DNA of 64,000 nucleotides, from NCBI GenBank assembly GCA_031416315.1, contig JANOTL010000192.1, positions 1 to 64,000 on the forward strand, written 5' to 3'. The notes under the pieces are model-generated. The model ran no database searches. It saw nothing but the letters and a program-made list of their open reading frames with translations, and was not told the DNA's origin. Positions within the stretch are counted from its first letter, which is position 1; the number at the start of each line of letters is the position of its first letter. Of the stretch, positions 12,265 to 25,483 are shown one piece after another. The stretch is from Pseudomonadota bacterium (GTDB lineage Bacteria; Bdellovibrionota_B; Oligoflexia; Oligoflexales; CAIYRB01). The translations under genes and the position numbers were made by a program.

Positions 12265-15200
12265 ATGTCCAACGCCTTCGACCGGAGCCTGATGACCCAC
12301 GATCAGCTCACGGCCTACGCGCGCGAAATTGCGATGACCGACGTCATCGAGCGCCGCGCCGGGCCGGAGGTGATGGTCGATCGGCTCGAGCGCAACGAAA
12401 AGATCCTGATCAGCTCGTTCCGTCTCGTCGAATCGGCGGCAAAAGCCCGAAAGCGGGTCGTGCCGGCGGCGATCTGGCTGCTCGACAACTTCTACCTCAT
12501 CGAAGAGAACATCCGGACCGCGCGGCGGCATCTTCCCAAGAGCTACAGCAGGGAGCTGCCGCGGCTCGAGAGCGGCCGTTGGGCCGGCTTTCCCCGGGTC
12601 TACGGGATGGCGCTCGAGCTGGTCTCGCACGTCGACGGCCGCGTCGACGAGCAAGCGCTCGCCGCCTTCATCGCCGGCTATCAGGAGAACGCCTCGCTCA
12701 AGATCGGGGAGCTGTGGGCCATCCCGATCATGCTGCGTTTCGCGCTGATCGAGAATTTGCGCAACATCGCGTCGCACGTCGCCGCGGCGTGCATCGACCG
12801 AAACACGGCGGCCTATTGGGCGGACCGGATCGCACAAGCCTCCGGCGAGGCCTCGCGCGAGCTCCTGCCGGTGATGGCGGAGCTGGCGCGCTCGAATCCT
12901 CGCATGTCGATCGTCTTCGTCACGGAGCTGGCGCGTTGTCTCCAGGCGCAATTTCCCGTGCAAACTCTGCCGATCACGTGGCTGGAGCAGCAGCTCTCGG
13001 AGCAAGGTCACACGCTCGAGCTGCAATTTCAGGCGGAAAGTCACCTCGAGGCCGCGGACCAGCTCAGCATCAGCAACCACATCGCGAGCCTCCGCTTCCT
13101 AGACGCCAACGACTGGCGGAACTTCGTCGAGGGTTCGAGCGTCGTCGAGGCGGTGCTCCGCGAGGATCCGGCGGGCGCTTACAGCTCGATGGATTTCGCG
13201 ACGCGCGACAGCTATCGGCACGTCGTCGAGCGGCTGGCGAAAAAGACGGAGAAGAGCGAGCTCAACGTCGCGAAAGCGGCCCTGGCGCGTGCCAGCTCGG
13301 TCGCGGCCGCCGCCGGCGATGGCGCCGGCGCGCACGTCGGCCAATACCTCGTCGCCAGCGGCGTCCAAGACCTCGAGGACGATCTGTTCGAGAAGAAGCC
13401 GCCGCTGAGCGTGCGGCTTTCACGGCGCGTGAAGGACAACCGGGTCGCGTTCTACGTCGGCTCGAGCCTCGTCCTCGCGGCGCTGATTACGGCCGTGATC
13501 ACCTGGAGCAGCTCCGCGGCCTTGGCCGTGCCGGCATTCCTGGTCGCGAGCCAGATCGGCGTCTCGATCGTCAACTGGATCGTGACGATGTTCGCGCGGC
13601 CGCAGCGCTTGCCGCGGCTCGAACTCAAGAATGGGCTGCCGGCGGAGTCGCGGACGATGGTCGTCGTGCCGACGATGATCGGCTCGGCCGCCGGGATCGA
13701 GCATCTGCTGAGCTCGCTCGAGGTGCGCTACGTCGCGAACCGGGATCCCCACCTTTACTTCGCTCTGCTCACGGATTTTCCCGACGCGGCCGAGGAGAGC
13801 CTGCCGCAGGACGCTGCGCTGATCGAGCAGGCCGCGACTGGCGTCCGCGCGCTGAACGAGCGCTACGGCAAGGACGGCAGCACGGTGTTCTTCCTCTTTC
13901 ACCGGCCGCGGCTCTGGAATGCCGAAGAGCGGCTGTGGATGGGCTGGGAGAGGAAGCGCGGGAAGCTGATCGAGCTGACACGGGCGCTGCGTAGCGGCGC
14001 GGCGCATCCATTCGCGCGCTTCCAACGGGTCGAGGGCGACACGAGCGCCTTGATCGACGTGCGCTACGTCATCACCCTGGACACGGATACCCAGCTGCCG
14101 CGCGATGCGGCGCGGATCCTGATCGGGACGATGGCGCATCCCTTGAACAAGCCGCGGCTCGACGCGCGGCAAAAACGCGTCACCGAAGGCTACGCGATCC
14201 TGCAGCCGAGGGTGGCGACGACGCTCGGGAGCCTCGGAAGCTCGATGTTCGCGAAGGTCTTCGCGGGCGACGCGGGCGTCGATCCGTATACGCGCGAAGT
14301 CTCCGACGTCTATCAGGATCTCTTTCAGGAAGGCTCGTTCATCGGCAAGGGCATTTACGAGGTCGACGCATTTCTTGCGACTCTCGACGGGCGTTTCCCC
14401 GAGAACTGGGTGCTCAGCCACGATTTGATCGAGAGCTGCTACGCGCGCTCGGGGCTCGTGAGCGACGTCATCCTGTACGAGGACTTCCCGGCGCGTTACC
14501 GCTCGGATGCCTCGCGGCGGCATCGTTGGATCCGCGGCGACTGGCAGATCGCGCCGTGGCTCCTGCCCTGGGTCAAGGGCGAGAACGGGAAAAAGCAGGC
14601 CAACGAGCTATCGGGCTTATCGCGGTGGAAGATCGCGGACAACCTTCGGCGCAGCCTCGTCGCGCCTGCCGCGATTATCTTCGCCTTGCTGGGTTGGCTC
14701 ATCGTGCCGGCTCCGGTCGTCGTCGCCTTGACGCTTTTGGCGTTGGTCGCTTTGCCAGCGCTGTTTTCGACGGTTCAGCAGGCGCTGCAGAAACCGGACG
14801 ACTGCGACTGGCCGCTGCACGCGCGGCTCGTCAGCGCCGCCGCCGTGAGGCAACTGACTCAGTCTTTTTTGTCTTTGGTTCTCTTGCCTTACGACGCAGC
14901 GATCGGCCTCGATGCCGTGTTGCGGGCGACGACCCGGATGGTCTTCACGCGGCGCAAGCTCTTGGAATGGAACACCGCGCACGACGTCGAGCGCCAAGTC
15001 AAAAGCGATCTAGCGACGCATATGCGGGCCATGGGCGGCGTCACGATCGCTGCCTTGATCGCAGCACCGTTCGTGGGGCCGGCGGCGGCGCCCTTCATCG
15101 CGCTCTGGGCGCTGTCGCCCTTGATCGCTTGGTGGGTGAGCCGGCCGATCGCGGCGCGCGAGCCGAACTTGACGGACCACGACCGGCGCTTCCTGATGAA

Positions 15201-18200
15201 GCTCGCGCGCAAGACGTGGCGTTACTTCGAGACTTTCGTCACGGACCACGATTCGCGTCTGGTTCCGGACAACTATCAGGAGTATCCGGCGGAGCAGATC
15301 GCGCATCGGACGTCACCGACCAACGTCGGCTTGGCGCTGCTGTCGGATCTCGGCGCGCACGATTTCGGCTTCCAGACGACGGAAGACATGATGGCGCGGA
15401 TCGAAGCGACGCTCGTCTCGATGGAGAAGCTCGAGCGCCATCGCGGCCACTTCTACAACTGGTACGACACGAAGACGTTGAAGCCTCTGTGGCCGCTTTA
15501 CGTCTCGACGGTGGACAGCGGCAACTTTTGCGGCTGCATGCTCGTCCTCGCGTTGGGCCTGGAAAAACTCGCCGAGGATCCGTTCCCGTCCGACGCCCAG
15601 GCGAAGCTCTCGCGCGGGATCCAGGCAACGGAAGACGTGCGCGAGGAGGTGTCCCAGGACGTGGAAGAGCACGCCTGGTGGACGAACGCGGTGGAGATGC
15701 TTCGGGAAGCAGCCAAACGAGAGCGCGAAAACGGGGAGAACGCCGACGACGTGGCACGGCGCGCGGAGCGGCTACGGGGCCTCGCGGCGCGCGCCCGATC
15801 CCTGGCTGCCTGCGATTTCGGCTTCCTCTACGACGAGGGACGCCGGCTCTTCGCGATCGGCTACAACGTCGAGAATCATCGGCGGGATCCGAGCTATTAC
15901 GATTTGCTCGCCTCGGAGGCGCGGCTCGCGAGTTTCCTTGCCGTGGCGCACGGGCAGGTTCCCGAGGAGCACTGGTTTGCGCTGGGCCGCTTGCTGACGC
16001 GGCTCGGCGGCGAGCCGCTCTTGCTCTCGTGGAGCGGCTCGATGTTCGAGTATTTGATGCCGATGCTCGTCCTGCCGGATCACGAGGACACTTTGCTCGG
16101 GCAAACGTGTAGGGCCGCGGTGCGCGAGCAGATCGCCTACGGACGCAAGCGTGGCGTGCCTTGGGGCATCTCGGAATCCGGTTATCACGTCACCGACGCG
16201 CATTTGACCTACCAGTATCGCGCGTTCGGCGTGCCGGGACTCGGCTTCAAGCGCGGCTTAGGCGACGACCTCGTCATCGCGCCTTACGCGTCGATGATGG
16301 CTTTGATGGTGGCGCCCGAGGAAGCGACGGCGAACTTGAAGCGCATGGCCAGCGACGACCTGACAGGCCGCTTCGGCTTCTTCGAGGCGATCGACTACAC
16401 GCCTTCGCGCCTGCCGCCGAACCAGGATCGCGTGGTGATCCGCTCGTTCATGGCGCACCACCAAGGCATGGGCTTCCTCTCGCTCGTGCATCTGTTGTTG
16501 GATCAGCCGATGCAGCGACGTCTGCAGCTCGATCCGACGTTTCAGGCGACGTCCTTGCTGCTCCAGGAGAACGTGCCGCGCACGGCGCCGTTCCCGTATC
16601 ACGGCACGGAGACGGGGGACGTCGGCGACTTGGCGACGGACGACTCGCCGCAGCTGCGTATCGTCAAGGAAGCAAGCCCGCCGCATCCGGAGACGCATTT
16701 GCTTTCAAACGGGCGTTATCACGTGGTCGTCACGAGCGACGGCTGCGGGTACAGCGCGCACGAAGGCATGATGCTCACAAGGTGGCGTGGCGACGCGACC
16801 ACGGCCTCCAACGGCCTCTTCTGCTACATTCGCGACGTCGACGGCGATGCGACCTGGTCGATGGGGCATCGGCCGACGTTCGCGAAGGCGGACCGGTACG
16901 AGGCGATCTTCTCCGAAGGGCGCGCCGAATTCAGGCGGCTTGAGCGGGGGCTTGAGACGCACACACAGATCGCCGTATCACCCGAAGAAGACTTCGAAAT
17001 TCGGCGCATCACCTTGCACAACCGCAGCTCGCAGGCGAAGACGCTTGAGCTGACGAGCTTCGCCGAGATCGCCTTGGCGCCGCAGGGCGCGGACGAGGCG
17101 CATCCGGCTTTCAGCAAGCTCTTCGTGCAAACGGAGATCCTGGCCGGAGACGACGCGATCCTCGCGGCGCGGCGGCCGCGGGTCGAGGGCGAGAAATTCC
17201 CGTGGCTCTGGCACGCCTTGCGGGTGCGCGAAGGCGCGACCGGGACCTCTTCCTTCGAGACCGATCGCGCGGCGTTCCTCGGACGAACGCGAGACGCGCG
17301 GCGACCGATCGCCGGCAAGGGCTTGCTGACGGGGAGCGCGGGCTCGGTCCTCGACCCGGCGCTCGCGATCCGTCGCGGCGTGCGGATCCCGCCCCAGGGG
17401 ACGGTGATCGTCGATTTGATGATGGGCGTCGGCAGCGACCGCAACAGCTGCACCGAGATCGTGCGGCGTTATGGCGACAAATCGCACGCGGATCGCGTCT
17501 TCGACCTGGCGTGGACGCAGGGCCAGATCGTGCTGCAGCAGCTCAACATTCGCGCGGCGGCGGCGCAAGGCTTCAACCGGCTGGCCGGATTCATGCTGTT
17601 TCCGCACCCGGCGATGCGACCTCCGGCGGCGACCCTAACGAAGAACCGGCGGCCGCAGTCGGCGCTCTGGGCTTACGGGATCTCCGGCGACCTGCCGATC
17701 CTGCTCGTGCGCGTGTCCGACGTCGCGAAGATCGATTTCCTACGCCAAGCGTTGACGGCGCACCTCTATTGGCGGCGGCGGGGATTCATCGCGGATCTCG
17801 TGATCTGGAACGAGGACGATTCTTCGTATCGCCAGCAGCTGCACGATCAGATTCTGAACGCGGTCGGCGTCCTCGGCGAGACGCCGCGGCTCGATCTTCC
17901 GGGTGGGATTTTCGTGCGGCGCACGCACCAGCTCACCGACGAGGACCGCACGCTCTTTCTTGCCGTGGCGCGCGTCGTCCTGAGCGATCGCGCCGGCAGC
18001 TTCGAGGATCAGATCGGTCGAGTGCTGCGCCTTGAGCAGAAGATGCCGAAGCTCGCGCCGTCGACGACGGAGACGGCGGAGCCGGCCGATCCGAAGGCGC
18101 TGAAGCCCGAGCCGGATCGCGTGTATTTCAACGGCCACGGCGGCTTTCGCTCGGACGGCAAAGAGTACGTGATCGACGTCAGCGGCGAGAATCCGACGCC

Positions 18201-20514
18201 GATGCCCTGGTCGAACGTCATCGCGAACGCGGTTTGCGGCACGGTCGTGACGGAGGCGGGCGGCGGCTACACTTGGTGCGAGAATGCGCACGAGCTCCGA
18301 CTGACGCCATGGTCGAACGACCCGATATCGGACCCGGTCGGCGAGGCGATCTATCTCCGCGACGAGAGCACCGGAAAGATCTGGAGTCCGACCCTGTTGC
18401 CCGCGGGCACCGGCAAGCCTTACACGGTTCGTCACGGCTTCGGTTACTCGAGCTTTCACCACGAGCGCTATGGGATCGCGACGGACCTCACGATCCTCGT
18501 CGCCGCCGAGGCGCCGGTGAAATACTCGCTCCTGCGGGTGAAGAACCGCTCCGCAAAGGCGCGGCGGATCACGGTGACCGCGGCGGTCGCCTGGGTGATG
18601 GGTGAGCACCGCGTGCGGACGGCGCCGAGCGTGGTGTCGGAGTTCGACGGCACGCTGGGCGCCCTCTTCGCGCAGAACTCCTTCTCGAACGATTTCCGTG
18701 ACCGCGTCGCCTTCTTCCACATGACGCCGACGGCGAAAAGCTGCACGGCGGATCGCGCTGAGTTCCTGGGGCGCGACGGCTCCTGGGCGCAGCCTGAAGC
18801 GCTGGAGCGCGAGCGGCTCTCGGGGCGCGTCGCCGCCGGGATCGACCCGTGCGCCGCGCTTCAGGTCGAGATCACACTGAAGCCGGGCGAGGAGCGCGAA
18901 GTCGTAGTGGCGCTCGGCTGCGGGAAGGATCGGGCCGAGGCTCGCGATCTGATCCGCATCTTCGGCGTACCGGGCGCAGCGCAGCGCGAGTTGAAGGCCG
19001 TACGCAAGAAGTGGGAGGAGCTCTGCGGCGCGGTCCAGGTGGAGACGTCGGATCCGTCATTCGACTTCCTGTGCAACGGATGGCTCGTCTACCAGACGAT
19101 CTCGAGTCGACTCTGGGCGCGCAGCGGGTTCTATCAGTCTGGCGGCGCGTTCGGGTTCCGAGATCAGCTCCAGGACTCGATGGCGCTCCTGCACGCGGCG
19201 CCGGATCTGACACGGGCGCAGATCCTCCGCAATGCCGCGCGCCAATTTCGCGAAGGCGACGTGCAGCACTGGTGGCATCCGCCGGGCGGCCGTGGCGTGC
19301 GGACGAAATTCTCTGATGATTACCTTTGGTTACCCTTGGTGACGGCGCTCTACGTGAAAACGACCGGTGATGCCGCGATCCTCGACGAGATGGTGCCGTT
19401 CCTGGAAGGGCGCGAGCTTCGCCACGACGAGGAGGCGTACTACGATCAGCCGGGGACCTCGGGCGACGTCGGGACGCTTTACGAGCACTGCGTGCGCTCG
19501 ATTCGCTACGGGTTGAAGTTCGGCACGCACGGTCTGCCGTTGATGGGCTGCGGCGACTGGAACGACGGGATGAACCTCGTCGGCATCGAAGGCAAAGGCG
19601 AAAGCGTCTGGCTCGCGTTCTTCCTGATCGACGTCTTGCGGAAGTTCGTGCCGCTCGCGGAGGCGCGGGGAGATGACGCCTTCGCACGGGTCTGCGAGTT
19701 CGAGGGCAAGCGGCTCGGCGAGAACGTCGAGGTGAACGCTTGGGACGGCGCTTGGTATTTGCGCGCGTTCTACGACAACGGCGCGCCGATGGGCTCGGCG
19801 CGAAGCGCGGAGTGTCAGATCGATATCCTGCCGCAGGCCTGGTCGGTGCTTTCCGGCACGAATAATCTCGGGCGTGCGACGCAGGCGATGAATGCGGCGT
19901 TCGACCGCCTGGTGCGGCCAAAAGAGGCGATCGTCCAGCTCTTCGACCCGCCCTTCGATCAAACGCCCGACAATCCCGGGTACATCAAAGGTTACGTCCC
20001 GGGTGTGCGGGAAAACGGCGGTCAGTACACTCACGCGGCCGTGTGGGCGACCTGGGCGTATGCAACGCTGGGCGACGCAAAGAAGGCATGGGGGCTGCTC
20101 GACATCGTGAATCCCCTTCATCACGGCACCACGGCGGAGCAATGCAAGGTCTACAAGGTCGAGCCGTACGTGGTCGCTGCGGACGTCTATGCGCGGCCAC
20201 CGCACGCGGGGCGGGGCGGATGGACCTGGTACACCGGCTCGTCGTCATGGATGTATCGACTGCTCGTCGAAGGTCTTCTCGGGATTCAGCGAGAGGCGGA
20301 GCAGATGCGCGTCGCGCCTTGCTTGAATCCGCGCTGGGAGAGCTGCAAGGTCAACTACAAGTACAAGACCAGTAACTATGCGCTCACACTGAAGCGCGGC
20401 GACAGCGGCGTCGGCGTGAAGCGCTTGATCGTCGACGGGGAAGATGTGGCGGGGGCCGTGTTTCCGCTGCTGGATGACGGACGGAGGCATGAGGTTACGG
20501 TCGAGACGCACTAG
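12265..20514 (+). CDS. ndvB: Cyclic beta-1,2-glucan synthase (GT84 plus C-terminal GH94-like phosphorylase)
   Basis: WLLDNFYLIE, GWERKRGKL, SHDLIE, RWIRGDWQ, YDLLASEARL, SWSGSMFEYLMP, QSGGAFGFRDQLQD, GDWNDG, ENGGQYTH, WTWYTGS. Confidence 0.95.
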   Translation: MSNAFDRSLMTHDQLTAYAREIAMTDVIERRAGPEVMVDRLERNEKILISSFRLVESAAKARKRVVPAAIWLLDNFYLIEENIRTARRHLPKSYSRELPRLESGRWAGFPRVYGMALELVSHVDGRVDEQALAAFIAGYQENASLKIGELWAIPIMLRFALIENLRNIASHVAAACIDRNTAAYWADRIAQASGEASRELLPVMAELARSNPRMSIVFVTELARCLQAQFPVQTLPITWLEQQLSEQGHTLELQFQAESHLEAADQLSISNHIASLRFLDANDWRNFVEGSSVVEAVLREDPAGAYSSMDFATRDSYRHVVERLAKKTEKSELNVAKAALARASSVAAAAGDGAGAHVGQYLVASGVQDLEDDLFEKKPPLSVRLSRRVKDNRVAFYVGSSLVLAALITAVITWSSSAALAVPAFLVASQIGVSIVNWIVTMFARPQRLPRLELKNGLPAESRTMVVVPTMIGSAAGIEHLLSSLEVRYVANRDPHLYFALLTDFPDAAEESLPQDAALIEQAATGVRALNERYGKDGSTVFFLFHRPRLWNAEERLWMGWERKRGKLIELTRALRSGAAHPFARFQRVEGDTSALIDVRYVITLDTDTQLPRDAARILIGTMAHPLNKPRLDARQKRVTEGYAILQPRVATTLGSLGSSMFAKVFAGDAGVDPYTREVSDVYQDLFQEGSFIGKGIYEVDAFLATLDGRFPENWVLSHDLIESCYARSGLVSDVILYEDFPARYRSDASRRHRWIRGDWQIAPWLLPWVKGENGKKQANELSGLSRWKIADNLRRSLVAPAAIIFALLGWLIVPAPVVVALTLLALVALPALFSTVQQALQKPDDCDWPLHARLVSAAAVRQLTQSFLSLVLLPYDAAIGLDAVLRATTRMVFTRRKLLEWNTAHDVERQVKSDLATHMRAMGGVTIAALIAAPFVGPAAAPFIALWALSPLIAWWVSRPIAAREPNLTDHDRRFLMKLARKTWRYFETFVTDHDSRLVPDNYQEYPAEQIAHRTSPTNVGLALLSDLGAHDFGFQTTEDMMARIEATLVSMEKLERHRGHFYNWYDTKTLKPLWPLYVSTVDSGNFCGCMLVLALGLEKLAEDPFPSDAQAKLSRGIQATEDVREEVSQDVEEHAWWTNAVEMLREAAKRERENGENADDVARRAERLRGLAARARSLAACDFGFLYDEGRRLFAIGYNVENHRRDPSYYDLLASEARLASFLAVAHGQVPEEHWFALGRLLTRLGGEPLLLSWSGSMFEYLMPMLVLPDHEDTLLGQTCRAAVREQIAYGRKRGVPWGISESGYHVTDAHLTYQYRAFGVPGLGFKRGLGDDLVIAPYASMMALMVAPEEATANLKRMASDDLTGRFGFFEAIDYTPSRLPPNQDRVVIRSFMAHHQGMGFLSLVHLLLDQPMQRRLQLDPTFQATSLLLQENVPRTAPFPYHGTETGDVGDLATDDSPQLRIVKEASPPHPETHLLSNGRYHVVVTSDGCGYSAHEGMMLTRWRGDATTASNGLFCYIRDVDGDATWSMGHRPTFAKADRYEAIFSEGRAEFRRLERGLETHTQIAVSPEEDFEIRRITLHNRSSQAKTLELTSFAEIALAPQGADEAHPAFSKLFVQTEILAGDDAILAARRPRVEGEKFPWLWHALRVREGATGTSSFETDRAAFLGRTRDARRPIAGKGLLTGSAGSVLDPALAIRRGVRIPPQGTVIVDLMMGVGSDRNSCTEIVRRYGDKSHADRVFDLAWTQGQIVLQQLNIRAAAAQGFNRLAGFMLFPHPAMRPPAATLTKNRRPQSALWAYGISGDLPILLVRVSDVAKIDFLRQALTAHLYWRRRGFIADLVIWNEDDSSYRQQLHDQILNAVGVLGETPRLDLPGGIFVRRTHQLTDEDRTLFLAVARVVLSDRAGSFEDQIGRVLRLEQKMPKLAPSTTETAEPADPKALKPEPDRVYFNGHGGFRSDGKEYVIDVSGENPTPMPWSNVIANAVCGTVVTEAGGGYTWCENAHELRLTPWSNDPISDPVGEAIYLRDESTGKIWSPTLLPAGTGKPYTVRHGFGYSSFHHERYGIATDLTILVAAEAPVKYSLLRVKNRSAKARRITVTAAVAWVMGEHRVRTAPSVVSEFDGTLGALFAQNSFSNDFRDRVAFFHMTPTAKSCTADRAEFLGRDGSWAQPEALERERLSGRVAAGIDPCAALQVEITLKPGEEREVVVALGCGKDRAEARDLIRIFGVPGAAQRELKAVRKKWEELCGAVQVETSDPSFDFLCNGWLVYQTISSRLWARSGFYQSGGAFGFRDQLQDSMALLHAAPDLTRAQILRNAARQFREGDVQHWWHPPGGRGVRTKFSDDYLWLPLVTALYVKTTGDAAILDEMVPFLEGRELRHDEEAYYDQPGTSGDVGTLYEHCVRSIRYGLKFGTHGLPLMGCGDWNDGMNLVGIEGKGESVWLAFFLIDVLRKFVPLAEARGDDAFARVCEFEGKRLGENVEVNAWDGAWYLRAFYDNGAPMGSARSAECQIDILPQAWSVLSGTNNLGRATQAMNAAFDRLVRPKEAIVQLFDPPFDQTPDNPGYIKGYVPGVRENGGQYTHAAVWATWAYATLGDAKKAWGLLDIVNPLHHGTTAEQCKVYKVEPYVVAADVYARPPHAGRGGWTWYTGSSSWMYRLLVEGLLGIQREAEQMRVAPCLNPRWESCKVNYKYKTSNYALTLKRGDSGVGVKRLIVDGEDVAGAVFPLLDDGRRHEVTVETH

Positions 20515-21346: not shown

Positions 21347-22981
21347 ATGATCCATCTGACCAACGTCACAAAACGCAGCGGGCAGCGCGTTCTCTACGAG
21401 AATGCGAGCTTCCAAGTGCGTCCGGGCGACCGAATCGGCCTCGTCGGTCCCAACGGGGCCGGGAAGACGACGATCTTTCGGATCATCACGAACGAAGACA
21501 CGAGCGACGGCGGCCACGTCGCCATCGATTCGAACTGCGTCATCGGCTACTTCTCCCAGGACGTCGGCGACATGAGAGGCCGCAGCGCCCTCGAGGAAGT
21601 GAAGGCCGGCGCCGGCCGCACGTCCGAGCTCGCCGTCGTCATCCAAGAAGCGGAGGCGCGCCTCGAGCGCTGCGCCGAAGATCCGCTGACGGACAACGAG
21701 ATGGAAAAGCTGATGGAGCGCTACGGCGAAGCGCAGATGGAGTACCAGCAGCGCGGCGGCTACGACCTCGAGGCGCGCTCCCGCGAAGTGCTCACGGGCT
21801 TGGGCATCGAGCCGCGCGACCACGACTCGCCGGTCGAGCGCTTCAGCGGCGGCTGGAAGATGCGAATTGCACTGGCAAAAATTCTAGTGCTGAACCCCGA
21901 CGTGCTGCTCCTGGACGAGCCGACCAACCACTTGGACATCGAGTCGATCCTTTGGCTCGAGGCGTTCCTCGCTGGCTTCAAGGGCGCCTACGTGATGACC
22001 AGCCACGACCGCGAGTTCATGAACCGCCTCGTGACCCGGATCGTCGAGGTCGCCGATCGCAAGCTGACGACCTACTCGGGCAACTACGAATTCTATCTGC
22101 GCGAGCGGGACATCCGTCGCACGCAAGCGGTCGCCGCCTTCGAGCGTCAGCGCGAGATGCTCTCCAAAGAAGAAGACTTCATCGCCCGCTTCGCCGCACG
22201 TGCCTCGCATGCGGCGCAGGTGCAGTCGCGCGTCAAGAAGATCGACAAGATCGAGCGCCTCGAGATGCCGACCGAGACGAAGACGATCAACTTCGCCTTC
22301 GCCTCGCCGCCGCGCTCCGGCAACGACGTCATCCGCCTGGACAACGTCAGCAAGACCTACGAGCGCGACGACGGCAGCCTGAAAGAGGTGTTTCACGGCG
22401 TCTCCGGGGTCGTGAAGCGGCTCGACAAGATCGCGCTCACTGGCGTCAACGGCGCTGGCAAGAGCACGTTGCTAAAGGCGATCGTCGGCCTGACCGAGTC
22501 GACCACGGGCACGATCACGGTCGGCGCCTCGGTGAAGATCGGCTACTTCGGCCAGAACGCGCTCGATCAGCTCGACCTCAAGCGCACGGTCTTCGACGAA
22601 GTCTCGCTTCGGATTCCCGACGCCTCGGTCGGCTACGTGCGCAACTTGCTCGGCGCCTTCCTCTTCAGCGGCGAGGATGTGGAGAAGCAGATCCGCGTGC
22701 TCTCCGGCGGCGAGCGCGCGCGCGTCGTGCTGGCGATCATGCTCGCGAGCCCCTTGAACCTCCTGGTGCTCGACGAGCCGACGAACCACTTGGACATCGA
22801 ATCCAGGATGGTTCTGCTCAACGCCGTGAAGGACTACGACGGCACCGTGCTCGTCGTTAGCCACGACCGGCACTTTCTGAAGCAGATCGTCACGCGCGTC
22901 TTCGAGATTCGGGCTGGAGAGCTCAGGACTTACGAAGGCGACTACGAGTACTACGTCGAGAAGACGGCCCCCGCCCCTTGA
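21347..22981 (+). CDS. ABC-F family ATPase
   Basis: Two ABC cassettes ([24 protein letters not shown] and GVNGAGKS/LSGGE), linker QVQSRVKKIDK, no TM segments. Confidence 0.93.
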   Translation: MIHLTNVTKRSGQRVLYENASFQVRPGDRIGLVGPNGAGKTTIFRIITNEDTSDGGHVAIDSNCVIGYFSQDVGDMRGRSALEEVKAGAGRTSELAVVIQEAEARLERCAEDPLTDNEMEKLMERYGEAQMEYQQRGGYDLEARSREVLTGLGIEPRDHDSPVERFSGGWKMRIALAKILVLNPDVLLLDEPTNHLDIESILWLEAFLAGFKGAYVMTSHDREFMNRLVTRIVEVADRKLTTYSGNYEFYLRERDIRRTQAVAAFERQREMLSKEEDFIARFAARASHAAQVQSRVKKIDKIERLEMPTETKTINFAFASPPRSGNDVIRLDNVSKTYERDDGSLKEVFHGVSGVVKRLDKIALTGVNGAGKSTLLKAIVGLTESTTGTITVGASVKIGYFGQNALDQLDLKRTVFDEVSLRIPDASVGYVRNLLGAFLFSGEDVEKQIRVLSGGERARVVLAIMLASPLNLLVLDEPTNHLDIESRMVLLNAVKDYDGTVLVVSHDRHFLKQIVTRVFEIRAGELRTYEGDYEYYVEKTAPAP

Positions 22982-23025
22982 CACCCCGCAAGGGGAACAC
23001 AAGTTGTGGGTGGAGGCGCCCAAAC

Positions 23026-23379
23026 ATGGCGTGGATTCGTGCATTCCTTCTTCTTTACGTCGCGCTGAGCGTTCAGCGCGCGTTGGAGGAAGAGCACGGG
23101 TCCAGGACAGCGCGGACGCTTGCCGAGAGTTGCGCGGATTCCGTGTTGACCGCGAGCTCTAACGGCAGCCACCAGGCGCTCGTTCGCCCGGCGACTCCAG
23201 ATGTATTCCACGGCAAGGACACTTGCCAATCCCTCCAGATCTCCTCATTTGTGCCTACCATGCGCGCGCCCGGTCCCACGGACGACAGGGTGCGCGCCTT
23301 CCTTTTCTTTAAGCCCGGAAAGAAGACATACATCACGCAGCTCGGCTCCGGCCGCGGCCCGCCGAGGCTCTTGGTCTAG
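23026..23379 (+). CDS. Candidate secretion-monitoring arrest (leader) peptide with C-terminal RGPP
   Basis: GGAGG SD, N-terminal hydrophobic WIRAFLLLYVALSV, RGPP at 23353-23364 four codons before the stop. Confidence 0.6.
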   Translation: MAWIRAFLLLYVALSVQRALEEEHGSRTARTLAESCADSVLTASSNGSHQALVRPATPDVFHGKDTCQSLQISSFVPTMRAPGPTDDRVRAFLFFKPGKKTYITQLGSGRGPPRLLV

Positions 23380-23409
23380 GTTTCCAACCTAAGAAAAAAC
23401 CAAGGAGTC
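23366..23409 (+). promoter_or_regulatory. SD-sequestering mRNA hairpin
   Basis: TAGGTT 23377-82 pairs AACCTA 23386-91; CTTGGT 23370-75 pairs ACCAAG 23399-404; GGCT 23366-69 pairs AGTC 23406-09. This covers AAGGAG 23402-07. Confidence 0.65.
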
Positions 23410-23414
23410 CGAAG

Positions 23415-23723
23415 ATGATGTCCATGTTGATCGTGGCGGCGAGCCTGCTCGTCGCGTCCGGTGACGTTTTGACCTTGAACCAGTACGATCTGACCACGGA
23501 CGAGGAACGGCGCGAGATCGCGCTCACCCTCACGGAGAGCGACGCGGCGCAGCTCTCGAAACTGTCGATGCGAGCGCCGGATCATAAGCTCGCCATCATC
23601 GTGGATGGCGTGGTGGTGCAGATGCCGACCCTGAAGGGGGGCCCCTTGACGGGACGCGGCGTGTCGCTGACATTCTCAGACGTGACGGCGTTCCGCGCCG
23701 CGAAGGCGGCCTTCCAAAAATAG
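23415..23723 (+). CDS. Small exported protein resembling the SecD/SecDF P1 head subdomain
   Basis: Signal-like N-terminus. IALTLTESDAAQLSKLS..KLAIIVDGVVVQMPTL..LTGRGVSLT resembles SecD 'LAIvLDg.vi.aP.i...I.gG...It'. Confidence 0.6.
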   Translation: MMSMLIVAASLLVASGDVLTLNQYDLTTDEERREIALTLTESDAAQLSKLSMRAPDHKLAIIVDGVVVQMPTLKGGPLTGRGVSLTFSDVTAFRAAKAAFQK

Positions 23724-23748
23724 ACCGCACCATAGACTAGGATCCGGG

Positions 23749-24495
23749 ATGAAACGCGCGAAAGCCCTGAGCGCCATCGAGGACTCCGGCATCCTGCTCG
23801 TGTACCCGATCAAGAACGAGCGGGATCCGGCGTCCCTTTGGTACAAGCTCTACCCGAAGAGTGCGATGAAGTGGGACTGGTCCGCGGACGCCGATCCGCG
23901 GGTCGTCGACCTCTGGCACATGCGGACCGAGCTGTCGGCGAGTCGAGAGGTCGTCTACGCCAAGTGGTACCAGGGGCGCGCGACCTTCTTCTCGCGGCAG
24001 GTCTATACGGCCATGCTCAAAATGGCGCAAACGACCTCACGGGAGATGATCCTGGGGCCGGAGGCGCGGGAGCTCTATGAGCTGCTGCTGGAGGACTCGC
24101 CCCAGACGTCGAAACCGCTCCGGGCCGCTTTGAGCCTCGAGGGAAAGGCTTCTGAGGCCGACTTCAACCGGCGGCTGAAAGCATTGTGGAACGGGCTCTT
24201 CACGGTCGGCTTCGGCGAGATCGAGGACGGCGCCTTTCCGTCCCTGGCGATCGGCGCCACCAAGCTGATCTTCGAAGACCTGTGGCAGGACGCCATGTCG
24301 CTCGACGAAGCGGAGGCGCGCGAGGTATTCGAGACTGTCGCGCCCGCTGGATCGGCGTTCGCAAAGTTCTTTCACAGGACGTTGAAGAAGGCTGGGGTGA
24401 CGGGTGAAGGCTCCGGGCTCGAAAGTGAGACTTTGGTTGTGCCTAAGCGCGCTGCTCGCGGCGCGCGTCGAGGCAGCGTCGTTCCCAGCGGCTGA
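23749..24495 (+). CDS. Hypothetical protein, possibly winged-helix/AlkZ-related
   Basis: LWHMRTEL..VVYAKWYQGRATFFS followed by a helix-turn-helix-like segment. Family call is tentative. Confidence 0.6.
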   Translation: MKRAKALSAIEDSGILLVYPIKNERDPASLWYKLYPKSAMKWDWSADADPRVVDLWHMRTELSASREVVYAKWYQGRATFFSRQVYTAMLKMAQTTSREMILGPEARELYELLLEDSPQTSKPLRAALSLEGKASEADFNRRLKALWNGLFTVGFGEIEDGAFPSLAIGATKLIFEDLWQDAMSLDEAEAREVFETVAPAGSAFAKFFHRTLKKAGVTGEGSGLESETLVVPKRAARGARRGSVVPSG

Positions 24496-25483
24496 GTGGG
24501 AGGACGCACCGGAGGCCTACGCGGCGGCGGAGGCGTACGCCTTCGGCCCCGGCATGAAAACTGACGGTGTCGTGATCATCCGCGCCGGCAAGCTGGCCTA
24601 CGAAAAGTATCGCGCACCTTATACGGCCGATGGGCGGCACGTCGCTTGGTCGATCAGCAAGAGCTTCTTGAACGCGCTCGTCGGCGTCATGGTCGGCGAA
24701 GGCAAGATGGCGCTCACCGATCCGGTCGCGAAGCTCGTGCCGGCGCTCGGTCGCGACGAGGCGCACAAGGCGCTCACCATCGGTCACTTGATGCACATGA
24801 GCTCGGGGCTCGCGTGGCAGGAATCGTACGAGGAATCTCCGCTCAACTCCTCCGTGCTCCGCATGCTTTATGGGGAGGGACAGGCCGACATGGCGGCTTT
24901 CGTCGCCGCCTTCGCGCTGGGCTCGACGCCGGGGACGAAGTGGTCGTATTCGAGCGGCGACAGCAATCTCTTGATGGGCGCGGTGCGCCAGGCAGCGGGC
25001 GAGGCCCGCTACAGGACGCTGCCTTGGACGGCCCTCTTTGATCGGCTCGGGATGCGCAGCGCGGTTTGGGAACGCGACGGGCACGGCGGCTTCGTCGCCT
25101 CGTCGTATGTTCATGCGACGCCGCGGGACTTGGCGCGATTCGGCTACCTATTTCTGCGCGACGGCCTGTGGAACGGGGAGCGGATCCTGCCTGAGGGTTG
25201 GGTCGCCTATTCGCGGACCTTGGCACCCGCGATCAAGGCGACGCCGGCGGAAAAGCAGCGCTACGGCGCGCAGTGGTGGCTGAATTCGGGGGAAGGGGAC
25301 ACCGTGCTCTACTGGCCCGAGGCTCCGGCGGATACGTACGCCGCGATGGGCCACTGGGGGCAGGCGATCTACGTGATCCCATCACTCGACATCGTCGTCG
25401 TGCGCACGGCGGACGATCGCGACGAGTCGTTCTCGACCAGCACTTTCCTTAAACACGTCGCAGCCGCGGTGGTGGGCCGATGA
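24404..25483 (+). CDS. Serine hydrolase, beta-lactamase/AmpC family
   Basis: Signal peptide, WSISKS (SxxK), LMHMSSGL, YSSGD, DLARFG, AMGHWGQ. Confidence 0.9.
   Translation: MKAPGSKVRLWLCLSALLAARVEAASFPAAEWEDAPEAYAAAEAYAFGPGMKTDGVVIIRAGKLAYEKYRAPYTADGRHVAWSISKSFLNALVGVMVGEGKMALTDPVAKLVPALGRDEAHKALTIGHLMHMSSGLAWQESYEESPLNSSVLRMLYGEGQADMAAFVAAFALGSTPGTKWSYSSGDSNLLMGAVRQAAGEARYRTLPWTALFDRLGMRSAVWERDGHGGFVASSYVHATPRDLARFGYLFLRDGLWNGERILPEGWVAYSRTLAPAIKATPAEKQRYGAQWWLNSGEGDTVLYWPEAPADTYAAMGHWGQAIYVIPSLDIVVVRTADDRDESFSTSTFLKHVAAAVVGR

Follow-up and report, generated by a model that had tools for sequence, protein, structure and literature searches.

In a genome assigned to the Oligoflexia (Pseudomonadota bacterium, GenBank assembly GCA_031416315.1), a 117-residue candidate leader ending in RGPP precedes a gene for an apparent stand-alone homologue of the SecD P1 head, and a hairpin predicted between them buries the second gene's Shine-Dalgarno (SD) sequence. 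Our view is that the arrangement is probably genuine: an arrest switch whose kind is known, whose target is undescribed and whose occurrence is limited to one lineage. A working coupling of some kind between arrest and stem seems to us quite likely. For the fuller proposal, in which the locus is a RAPP/RGPP-class switch working by translation arrest, its leader senses export and its stall turns on the free head, the chances look even. The boldest reading, that a motor-less SecD P1 head is induced by an arrest peptide that monitors export, is offered tentatively, as a possibility. Three things are computed here: the coding signal of the leader, the homology of its target and a register-dependent opening of the start site in a folding model. 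The layout is less unusual than first thought, because leaders of this class are already in the literature and P1 heads commonly occur as stand-alone proteins; the target, a stand-alone P1 head, looks new, and the type of switch is known. The locus lies in a window of 64,000 nucleotides (the whole stretch analysed; contig JANOTL010000192.1, positions 1 to 64,000, forward strand), to which all coordinates below refer.

The leader and its target gene

All the elements that a first-pass annotation of this DNA had described, namely the leader, its SD, the hydrophobic segment, RAPG, RGPP, the hairpin and the downstream open reading frame, were found at the positions given for them (Table 1).

Table 1. 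Features of the leader-head locus, in window coordinates.
Feature	Coordinates	Strand	Basis
Possible sigma-70 promoter for leader; TTGACA (22978-22983) overlaps ABC-F stop, poor -10 hexamer 16 nt on	22978-23005	+	Read from sequence, weak
Leader SD, GGAGG	23012-23016	+	Sequence; ATG 23026 lies 9 nt further on
Leader ORF, 117 aa, candidate arrest peptide of RGPP type	23026-23379	+	ORF call and motif
Leader hydrophobic segment, residues 6-16, may serve as signal peptide or anchor	23041-23073	+	Hydropathy
Internal RAPG, leader residues 80-83	23263-23274	+	Sequence
RGPP codons, leader residues 110-113; predicted P-site 23359-23361, A-site 23362-23364	23353-23364	+	Sequence; register by analogy to ApdA/ApdP/CruR
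Two-tier hairpin	23366-23409	+	MFE and centroid structures
Lower stem, contains head-gene SD	23366-23375 with 23399-23409	+	Folding
Upper stem, contains leader stop	23376-23393	+	Folding
A-rich bulge	23394-23398	+	Folding
Head-gene SD, AAGGAG, paired with 23366-23375 in lower stem	23402-23407	+	Sequence and folding
Stand-alone SecD P1-head-like protein, 102 aa	23415-23723	+	Pfam, NCBIfam, Atlas, profile alignments
AlkZ-related gene, 25 nt past head gene, possibly co-transcribed	23749-24495	+	Pfam PF24741, E 4e-13

The leader looks protein-coding. Its frame is the only one of the six that is free of stops, and its GC content at third codon positions is 0.76, against 0.60 and 0.52 at the other two, a bias that 3 of 10,000 shuffles equal. 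NCBI and Logan both carry the identical protein as a gene call. A crude codon model scores the leader at -3.6 and the head gene at +20.7. By hydropathy alone, residues 6-16 reach a Kyte-Doolittle value of 2.54 over the 11-mer, and the RGPP motif lies at the C-terminal end, about 90 residues past this segment, where a screen for monitoring substrates asks for a distance of over 30 from the signal. The motif is followed by RLLV and then the stop, which places it four residues ahead of the end of the leader. Profile searches of Pfam and NCBIfam returned no family match for the leader, and a promoter scan returned no sites, its possible sigma-70 promoter falling below threshold. The internal RAPG is present as described but is probably no part of the switch: it precedes the stem by about 100 nt, too great a distance for opening it, and may be incidental. 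A strong GC-rich hairpin is also predicted within the leader, at 23256-23299, spanning the RAPG codons.

The proposed likeness of the downstream protein to the SecD P1 head was upheld by sequence comparisons. The Pfam profile SecDF_P1_head (PF22599) matches residues 12-75 at E 7.9e-5 and 23 bits, short of the curated cut-off of 27 and with its first ~18 positions unmatched, and the NCBIfam secD profile TIGR01129 gives E 7e-4 and 18.8 bits, not reaching its cut-off of 244. The top Atlas neighbours are stand-alone clusters of 103-126 aa with PF22599 on 10-79% of their members. When the protein is aligned with nine relatives that also stand alone (A2; some rows are just 13-27% identical to the query), the alignment matches the head of the SecDF encoded by this genome in hhalign (P 96.6, E 7e-10) and the T. 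thermophilus SecDF structures 3AQP and 3AQO (E 7e-17 and 2e-16, respectively); as a single sequence, the protein reaches E 0.52 with 3AQO. We consider homology to the SecD P1 head supported by these comparisons despite the sub-cut-off Pfam score.

The protein has a hydrophobic N-terminus without a lipobox Cys, and the public gene call takes its second Met as the start, giving 101 aa. Its open reading frame ends at a stop with neither the P1 base nor the transmembrane motor that belong to a SecD or SecDF subunit. It shares homology over the head core with the P1 heads of SecD and SecDF (PF22599; PDB 3AQO, 3AQP, 5YHF, 5XAN), but it is free-standing and carries an N-terminal hydrophobic segment of its own. 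A full fused SecDF is encoded elsewhere in the genome (contig C35), without such a leader. Recent break-off of the head gene from this secDF was considered and rejected, there being no tblastn match at E 10; it is also opposed by the separate long branch of the head (1.78, in a quick tree with long branches).

Start-site occlusion and ribosome register

The burial of the next gene's SD in a hairpin directly after RGPP, as the first-pass annotation had it, is seen in both the MFE and the centroid fold. The bases of AAGGAG have unpaired probabilities of 0.01-0.29 in the absence of a ribosome, and the spacer between the two genes measures 35 nt. The stability of the hairpin varies with the window folded, from z -2.4 for 23362-23413 (16 of 1000 shuffles) and z -2.0 for 23366-23409 (48 of 1000) to z -0.84 for 23340-23440 (39 of 200 shuffles equal or better) and z -0.6 for 23355-23420 (240 of 1000). 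Hairpin stability is thus modest and, on its own, weak evidence. An Rfam search of the locus returned a chance miRNA match only.

The dependence on ribosome position is more telling in the folding model. Bases covered by the ribosome were forced to be unpaired, the P-site was stepped along the leader and the cost of opening the start site was modelled. For a 15-nt footprint, this cost is 7.8-9.4 kcal/mol with the P-site upstream of the Arg codon and falls to 6.6 at Arg, 2.9 at Gly and 1.8 kcal/mol at the first Pro. The choice of footprint moves the opening by one codon, with 12 nt centring it on the first Pro and 18 nt on Arg. The drop amounts to 8.0 kcal/mol, compared with a control median of 0.2, and a single one of 146 control gene pairs shows a drop as large; the rank is the same when the best of three positions is taken and, if the window is shortened, becomes 2 of 146. 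The stall geometry proposed earlier, with the stalled ribosome over the masking stem's 5' arm, is reproduced by this model, in which a footprint that has the first Pro at the P-site melts the SD stem with a drop of 7-8 kcal/mol. A ribosome at the last codons of the leader also keeps the start site open in the model. Some basal coupling is therefore expected, and arrest would prolong it; prolonged coupling by arrest has been reported for an Alteromonas leader (PMC10987492).

The proposed switch and competing explanations

In the mechanism that we propose, the leader would enter Sec and the ribosome would stall at RGP/P, covering 23366-23373 on the 5' side of the lower stem and leaving AAGGAG free for translation of the head gene. 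Export pull on the nascent leader would release the arrest, the ribosome would terminate four codons on, and the stem would then refold, with head output falling to a coupling-level base. The head product would be exported and motor-less, most likely helping passively, by binding polypeptides at the translocon's outer face. Stalling at RGPP is suggested by analogy. In RAPP-type stalls, it is the first Pro that occupies the P-site (PMC10951233), and the CruR toeprint agrees with this register (PMC12992588). Among arrest cores, RGPP has been described as both the strongest and the most tolerant of context, and all seven of the S. lividans proteins with C-terminal RAPP or RGPP that were tested arrested, although RAPP-like motifs alone are insufficient for arrest (PMC12992588). 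Impaired export as the input to the switch would fit the homology of the target to a SecD subdomain that bears a substrate pocket (PMC11470409). Counting against the switch, a free head without a motor offers no obvious route to export repair.

The input could be of another kind. With two cysteines (Cys36 and Cys67) and three histidines in its linker (His24, His49 and His62), the leader might sense a ligand, either a metal or a redox signal, and the head might have a role outside export. The Atlas feature neighbours of the leader are unnamed clusters of 117-122 aa (likeness 0.96), and the nearest named ones are DUF6769 and CzcI (0.94, flagged 'often chance'). RAPP/RGPP leaders have been found enriched before metal and disulfide genes, some of them with Cys/His pairs (PMC12992588). 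We nevertheless judge a ligand input unlikely: the leader contains no CXXC and so lacks the spacing of DUF2946/CruR, in which CXXC stands 45 residues ahead of RAPP (PMC9426467), it matches no Pfam family, there is no match to DUF2946 or CzcI at E up to 1, and no metal gene lies downstream.

The proposed switch would gain from conservation, and the conserved upstream open reading frame with a signal and R[AG]PP that the first-pass annotation led us to look for was not found. No homologue of the leader was detected among 5.8 billion proteins or in 130 genomes of the class (best E 0.006). For the head, a word-index search returned only the protein itself, and phmmer against 1.84 billion representatives gave five matches, one of them a real relative (P0005; 144 aa, 37%); the three other non-self matches, all long repeat-rich proteins, were dropped. 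Scans for head homologues with P0002 (metagenome and genome contigs) or P0005 (metagenome contigs and plasmids) returned nothing, so that no DNA encoding P0005 was located, and the alignment from the head homologue search (A3) contains no conserved stretch.

Stand-alone P1 heads in short frames occur in the class at 16 loci in 13 of 130 genomes, and the phylum-level search covered the same 131 genomes as the class search. Fourteen of these loci were tested for a leader (the other two have 11 and 20 nt of upstream DNA; among the 14, one is split by a stop and one is maybe a secD fragment), and none has an R[AG]PP-like open reading frame end within 350 nt upstream. In a survey of 301 Myxococcota genomes (150 of its 350 matches listed), 12 short-frame loci were taken, two of which are cut SecD genes; none of the remaining ten among the matches listed has a leader upstream, a loose comparison as these P1 proteins are longer. 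Together, an R[AG]PP-like leader end is absent upstream of all 24 other stand-alone P1 or P1-head loci from the class and the Myxococcota matches listed. The full secDF loci of the class have no leader, four of them showing motifs in very short or overlapping frames only. A DNA pattern scan of 185,579 genomes, narrow in that it used one Arg codon, a fixed spacing and one head motif, gave 101 matches; among the 80 of these loci that were covered, none has a leader with a free head, and a head domain occurs in 5, always within a long open reading frame.

This distribution would also be expected if a mobile RGPP leader and stem had recently been assembled before a fast-evolving head, in which case the leader might stall and couple with no general regulatory meaning. 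No synteny was found around the ABC-F orthologue in 10 family genomes or around the four AlkZ-like homologues in the 130 class genomes, which have different upstream genes or a contig edge, and the head sits on its long branch apart from the genome's own SecDF in the quick tree. Against recent local assembly, the leader codons pair with the head's own SD in exact register, which would need joint tuning, and the arrangement is present in a relative from another study. A contig from a sludge metagenome (X2), about 95% identical, spans 22772-23614. It differs by 44 substitutions and by two insertions, of which one lies next to the top loop and the other within the A-rich bulge. Both insertions thus fall in the 35-nt spacer and spare the leader, the head gene and the lower stem, and both frames are therefore kept in this relative. 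The chance that both would miss an unconstrained leader is (79/433)^2 = 0.03 by hand calculation. The next X2 contig aligns without gaps over 23591-24594 and differs there by 77 substitutions. On balance, we consider local assembly improbable. An RNA run (X5) yielded contigs over the leader and head and none over 23742-24600, and two further RNA runs of the same study share about a tenth of words; all three were picked by this stretch and are not counted as expression.

A more prosaic reading takes the leader for a small exported protein of an ordinary sort, whose terminal RGPP is accidental, and has the hairpin serve only plain coupling or mRNA stability. In this genome (65% GC, 93% complete), R[AG]PP occurs 598 times within 12 residues of a stop across all six frames, RGPP is found nine times inside called genes, and its depletion from the proteome is mild (observed/expected 0.36, and 0.41 for AGPP, with crude gene calls). 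Occlusion of the start site is ordinary as well, with 64 of 146 control gene pairs equally closed, and a terminating ribosome would open the stem too. We hold chance to be decidedly improbable, since just two of the ten open reading frames in the genome that begin with a hydrophobic segment and end in R[AG]PP are credible as leaders, and since the opening begins exactly at the motif, to an extent seen in one of the 146 controls. What goes beyond chance is the combination of the GC3 bias in the RGPP frame with a start site that, in the model, opens as the ribosome comes into register with RGPP.

Rho-dependent attenuation of transcription, by which CruR acts (PMC9426467), would suit the close, co-oriented run of head, AlkZ-like and serine hydrolase genes, but arrest acting in that way here is very improbable, as the spacer of 35 nt compares with 162 nt at the CruR locus (PMC9426467), the SD-occluding stem already accounts for the layout and no terminator-like site was found in the spacer.

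Known arrest peptides and free P1 heads

The arrest switch that we favour fits into a published class of RAPP/RGPP leaders (Fujiwara 2024, 2025). The locus shows the features used in a published screen for monitoring substrates (PMC10987492), with the exception of conservation, which makes its leader a candidate member of that group. It is a small open reading frame without a family; where the screen looks for a sec or yidC gene directly downstream, the gene here is a SecD-head homologue and not a complete secD. Its closest published counterparts are the RQH-family uORFs before secDF, such as uDF_RQH_Enterobacterales (R125GPP) of Alteromonas naphthalenivorans, with which it shares a small exported leader (PMC10987492). 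The Alteromonas case also has RGPP near the C-terminus, an SD-masking stem-loop and a SecD-related target, but its induction by arrest has been demonstrated, whereas induction is modelled here, and its target is a full secDF2, whereas the target here is a 102-aa head without P1 base or motor (PMC10987492). We found no sequence homology to the RQH-family leaders, and the pair described here is not conserved in the order. SecM/secA, VemP/secDF2, MifM/yidC2 and ApdA/ApdP have the same layout and the same predicted logic, in which arrest opens an SD-occluding stem, but they show no homology to this leader and their targets are complete, active translocation factors. The CruR (DUF2946) and CutF/CzcI-type leaders share with it a signal, Cys and His residues in the linker and a terminal RAPP-like motif, CzcI being a protein that we take to be a leader of this type. 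Our candidate differs from this group in having no CXXC, the wrong spacing, a short spacer and no metal-handling gene downstream.

It also resembles the small secretory uORFs with C-terminal RAPP or RGPP in size, signal, motif position and a co-oriented downstream gene (PMC12992588). Leaders of this kind also precede metal, redox and other genes, and a supplementary table lists 1074 RAPP uORFs before SecD-annotated genes (PMC12992588); orphan RAPP/RGPP uORFs have been reported too (PMC10987492). In the accessible part of that survey, the downstream classes name no stand-alone P1 head, and its supplement, covered here in part, may list one (PMC12992588). A literature search found no publication on free-standing P1 heads and none joining RAPP/RGPP leaders with the Oligoflexia.

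Uncultured bacteria commonly encode free SecD P1 heads, and a leader that reports on export would link one of them to export stress. If the proposed switch is real, it would be the first regulatory clue that these widespread proteins act in export stress, perhaps as soluble or anchored catchers of chains leaving SecY that form a ratchet without proton-driven movement. The head could even bind the nascent leader itself and in this way complete a feedback loop. A long-open point, whether a P1 head can aid translocation or folding without its motor, would thereby become testable, and the reach of RAPP/RGPP leaders would extend to the Oligoflexia. The weight of these suggestions is limited by the leader-head pair being confined so far to a single lineage.

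Several further observations concern related proteins and neighbouring genes. The second credible leader in this genome (G000:C90:7352-7741, minus strand; locus L081/L233) encodes 129 aa with a hydrophobic N-terminus, a His-rich linker and RAPP three residues ahead of the stop, and lies 42 nt before a putative lipoprotein gene (213 aa). It has no SD-occluding stem (opening drop 0.3 kcal/mol), and no homologue of it was found in 11 family genomes. Three family genomes encode exported proteins of about 364 aa in which a C-terminal P1-head-like domain stands behind an unrelated helical region (L040 in G007, L041 in G008 and L037 in G011), and ten Myxococcota loci (L221-L230) encode stand-alone proteins of 245-394 aa, many of them lipoprotein-like, with a C-terminal P1-head domain. 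Directly upstream of the leader lies a gene for an ABC-F family ATPase (21347-22981), and ABC-F proteins are listed among stalling-relief factors (PMC12992588). In two family genomes (L102 in G009 and L105 in G011), the ABC-F orthologue is one gene from a full secDF, in divergent orientation, and in the other family genomes it has different neighbours. Elsewhere in the window, a 2749-aa open reading frame spans 12265-20514; its product presumably resembles a cyclic beta-1,2-glucan synthase/phosphorylase.
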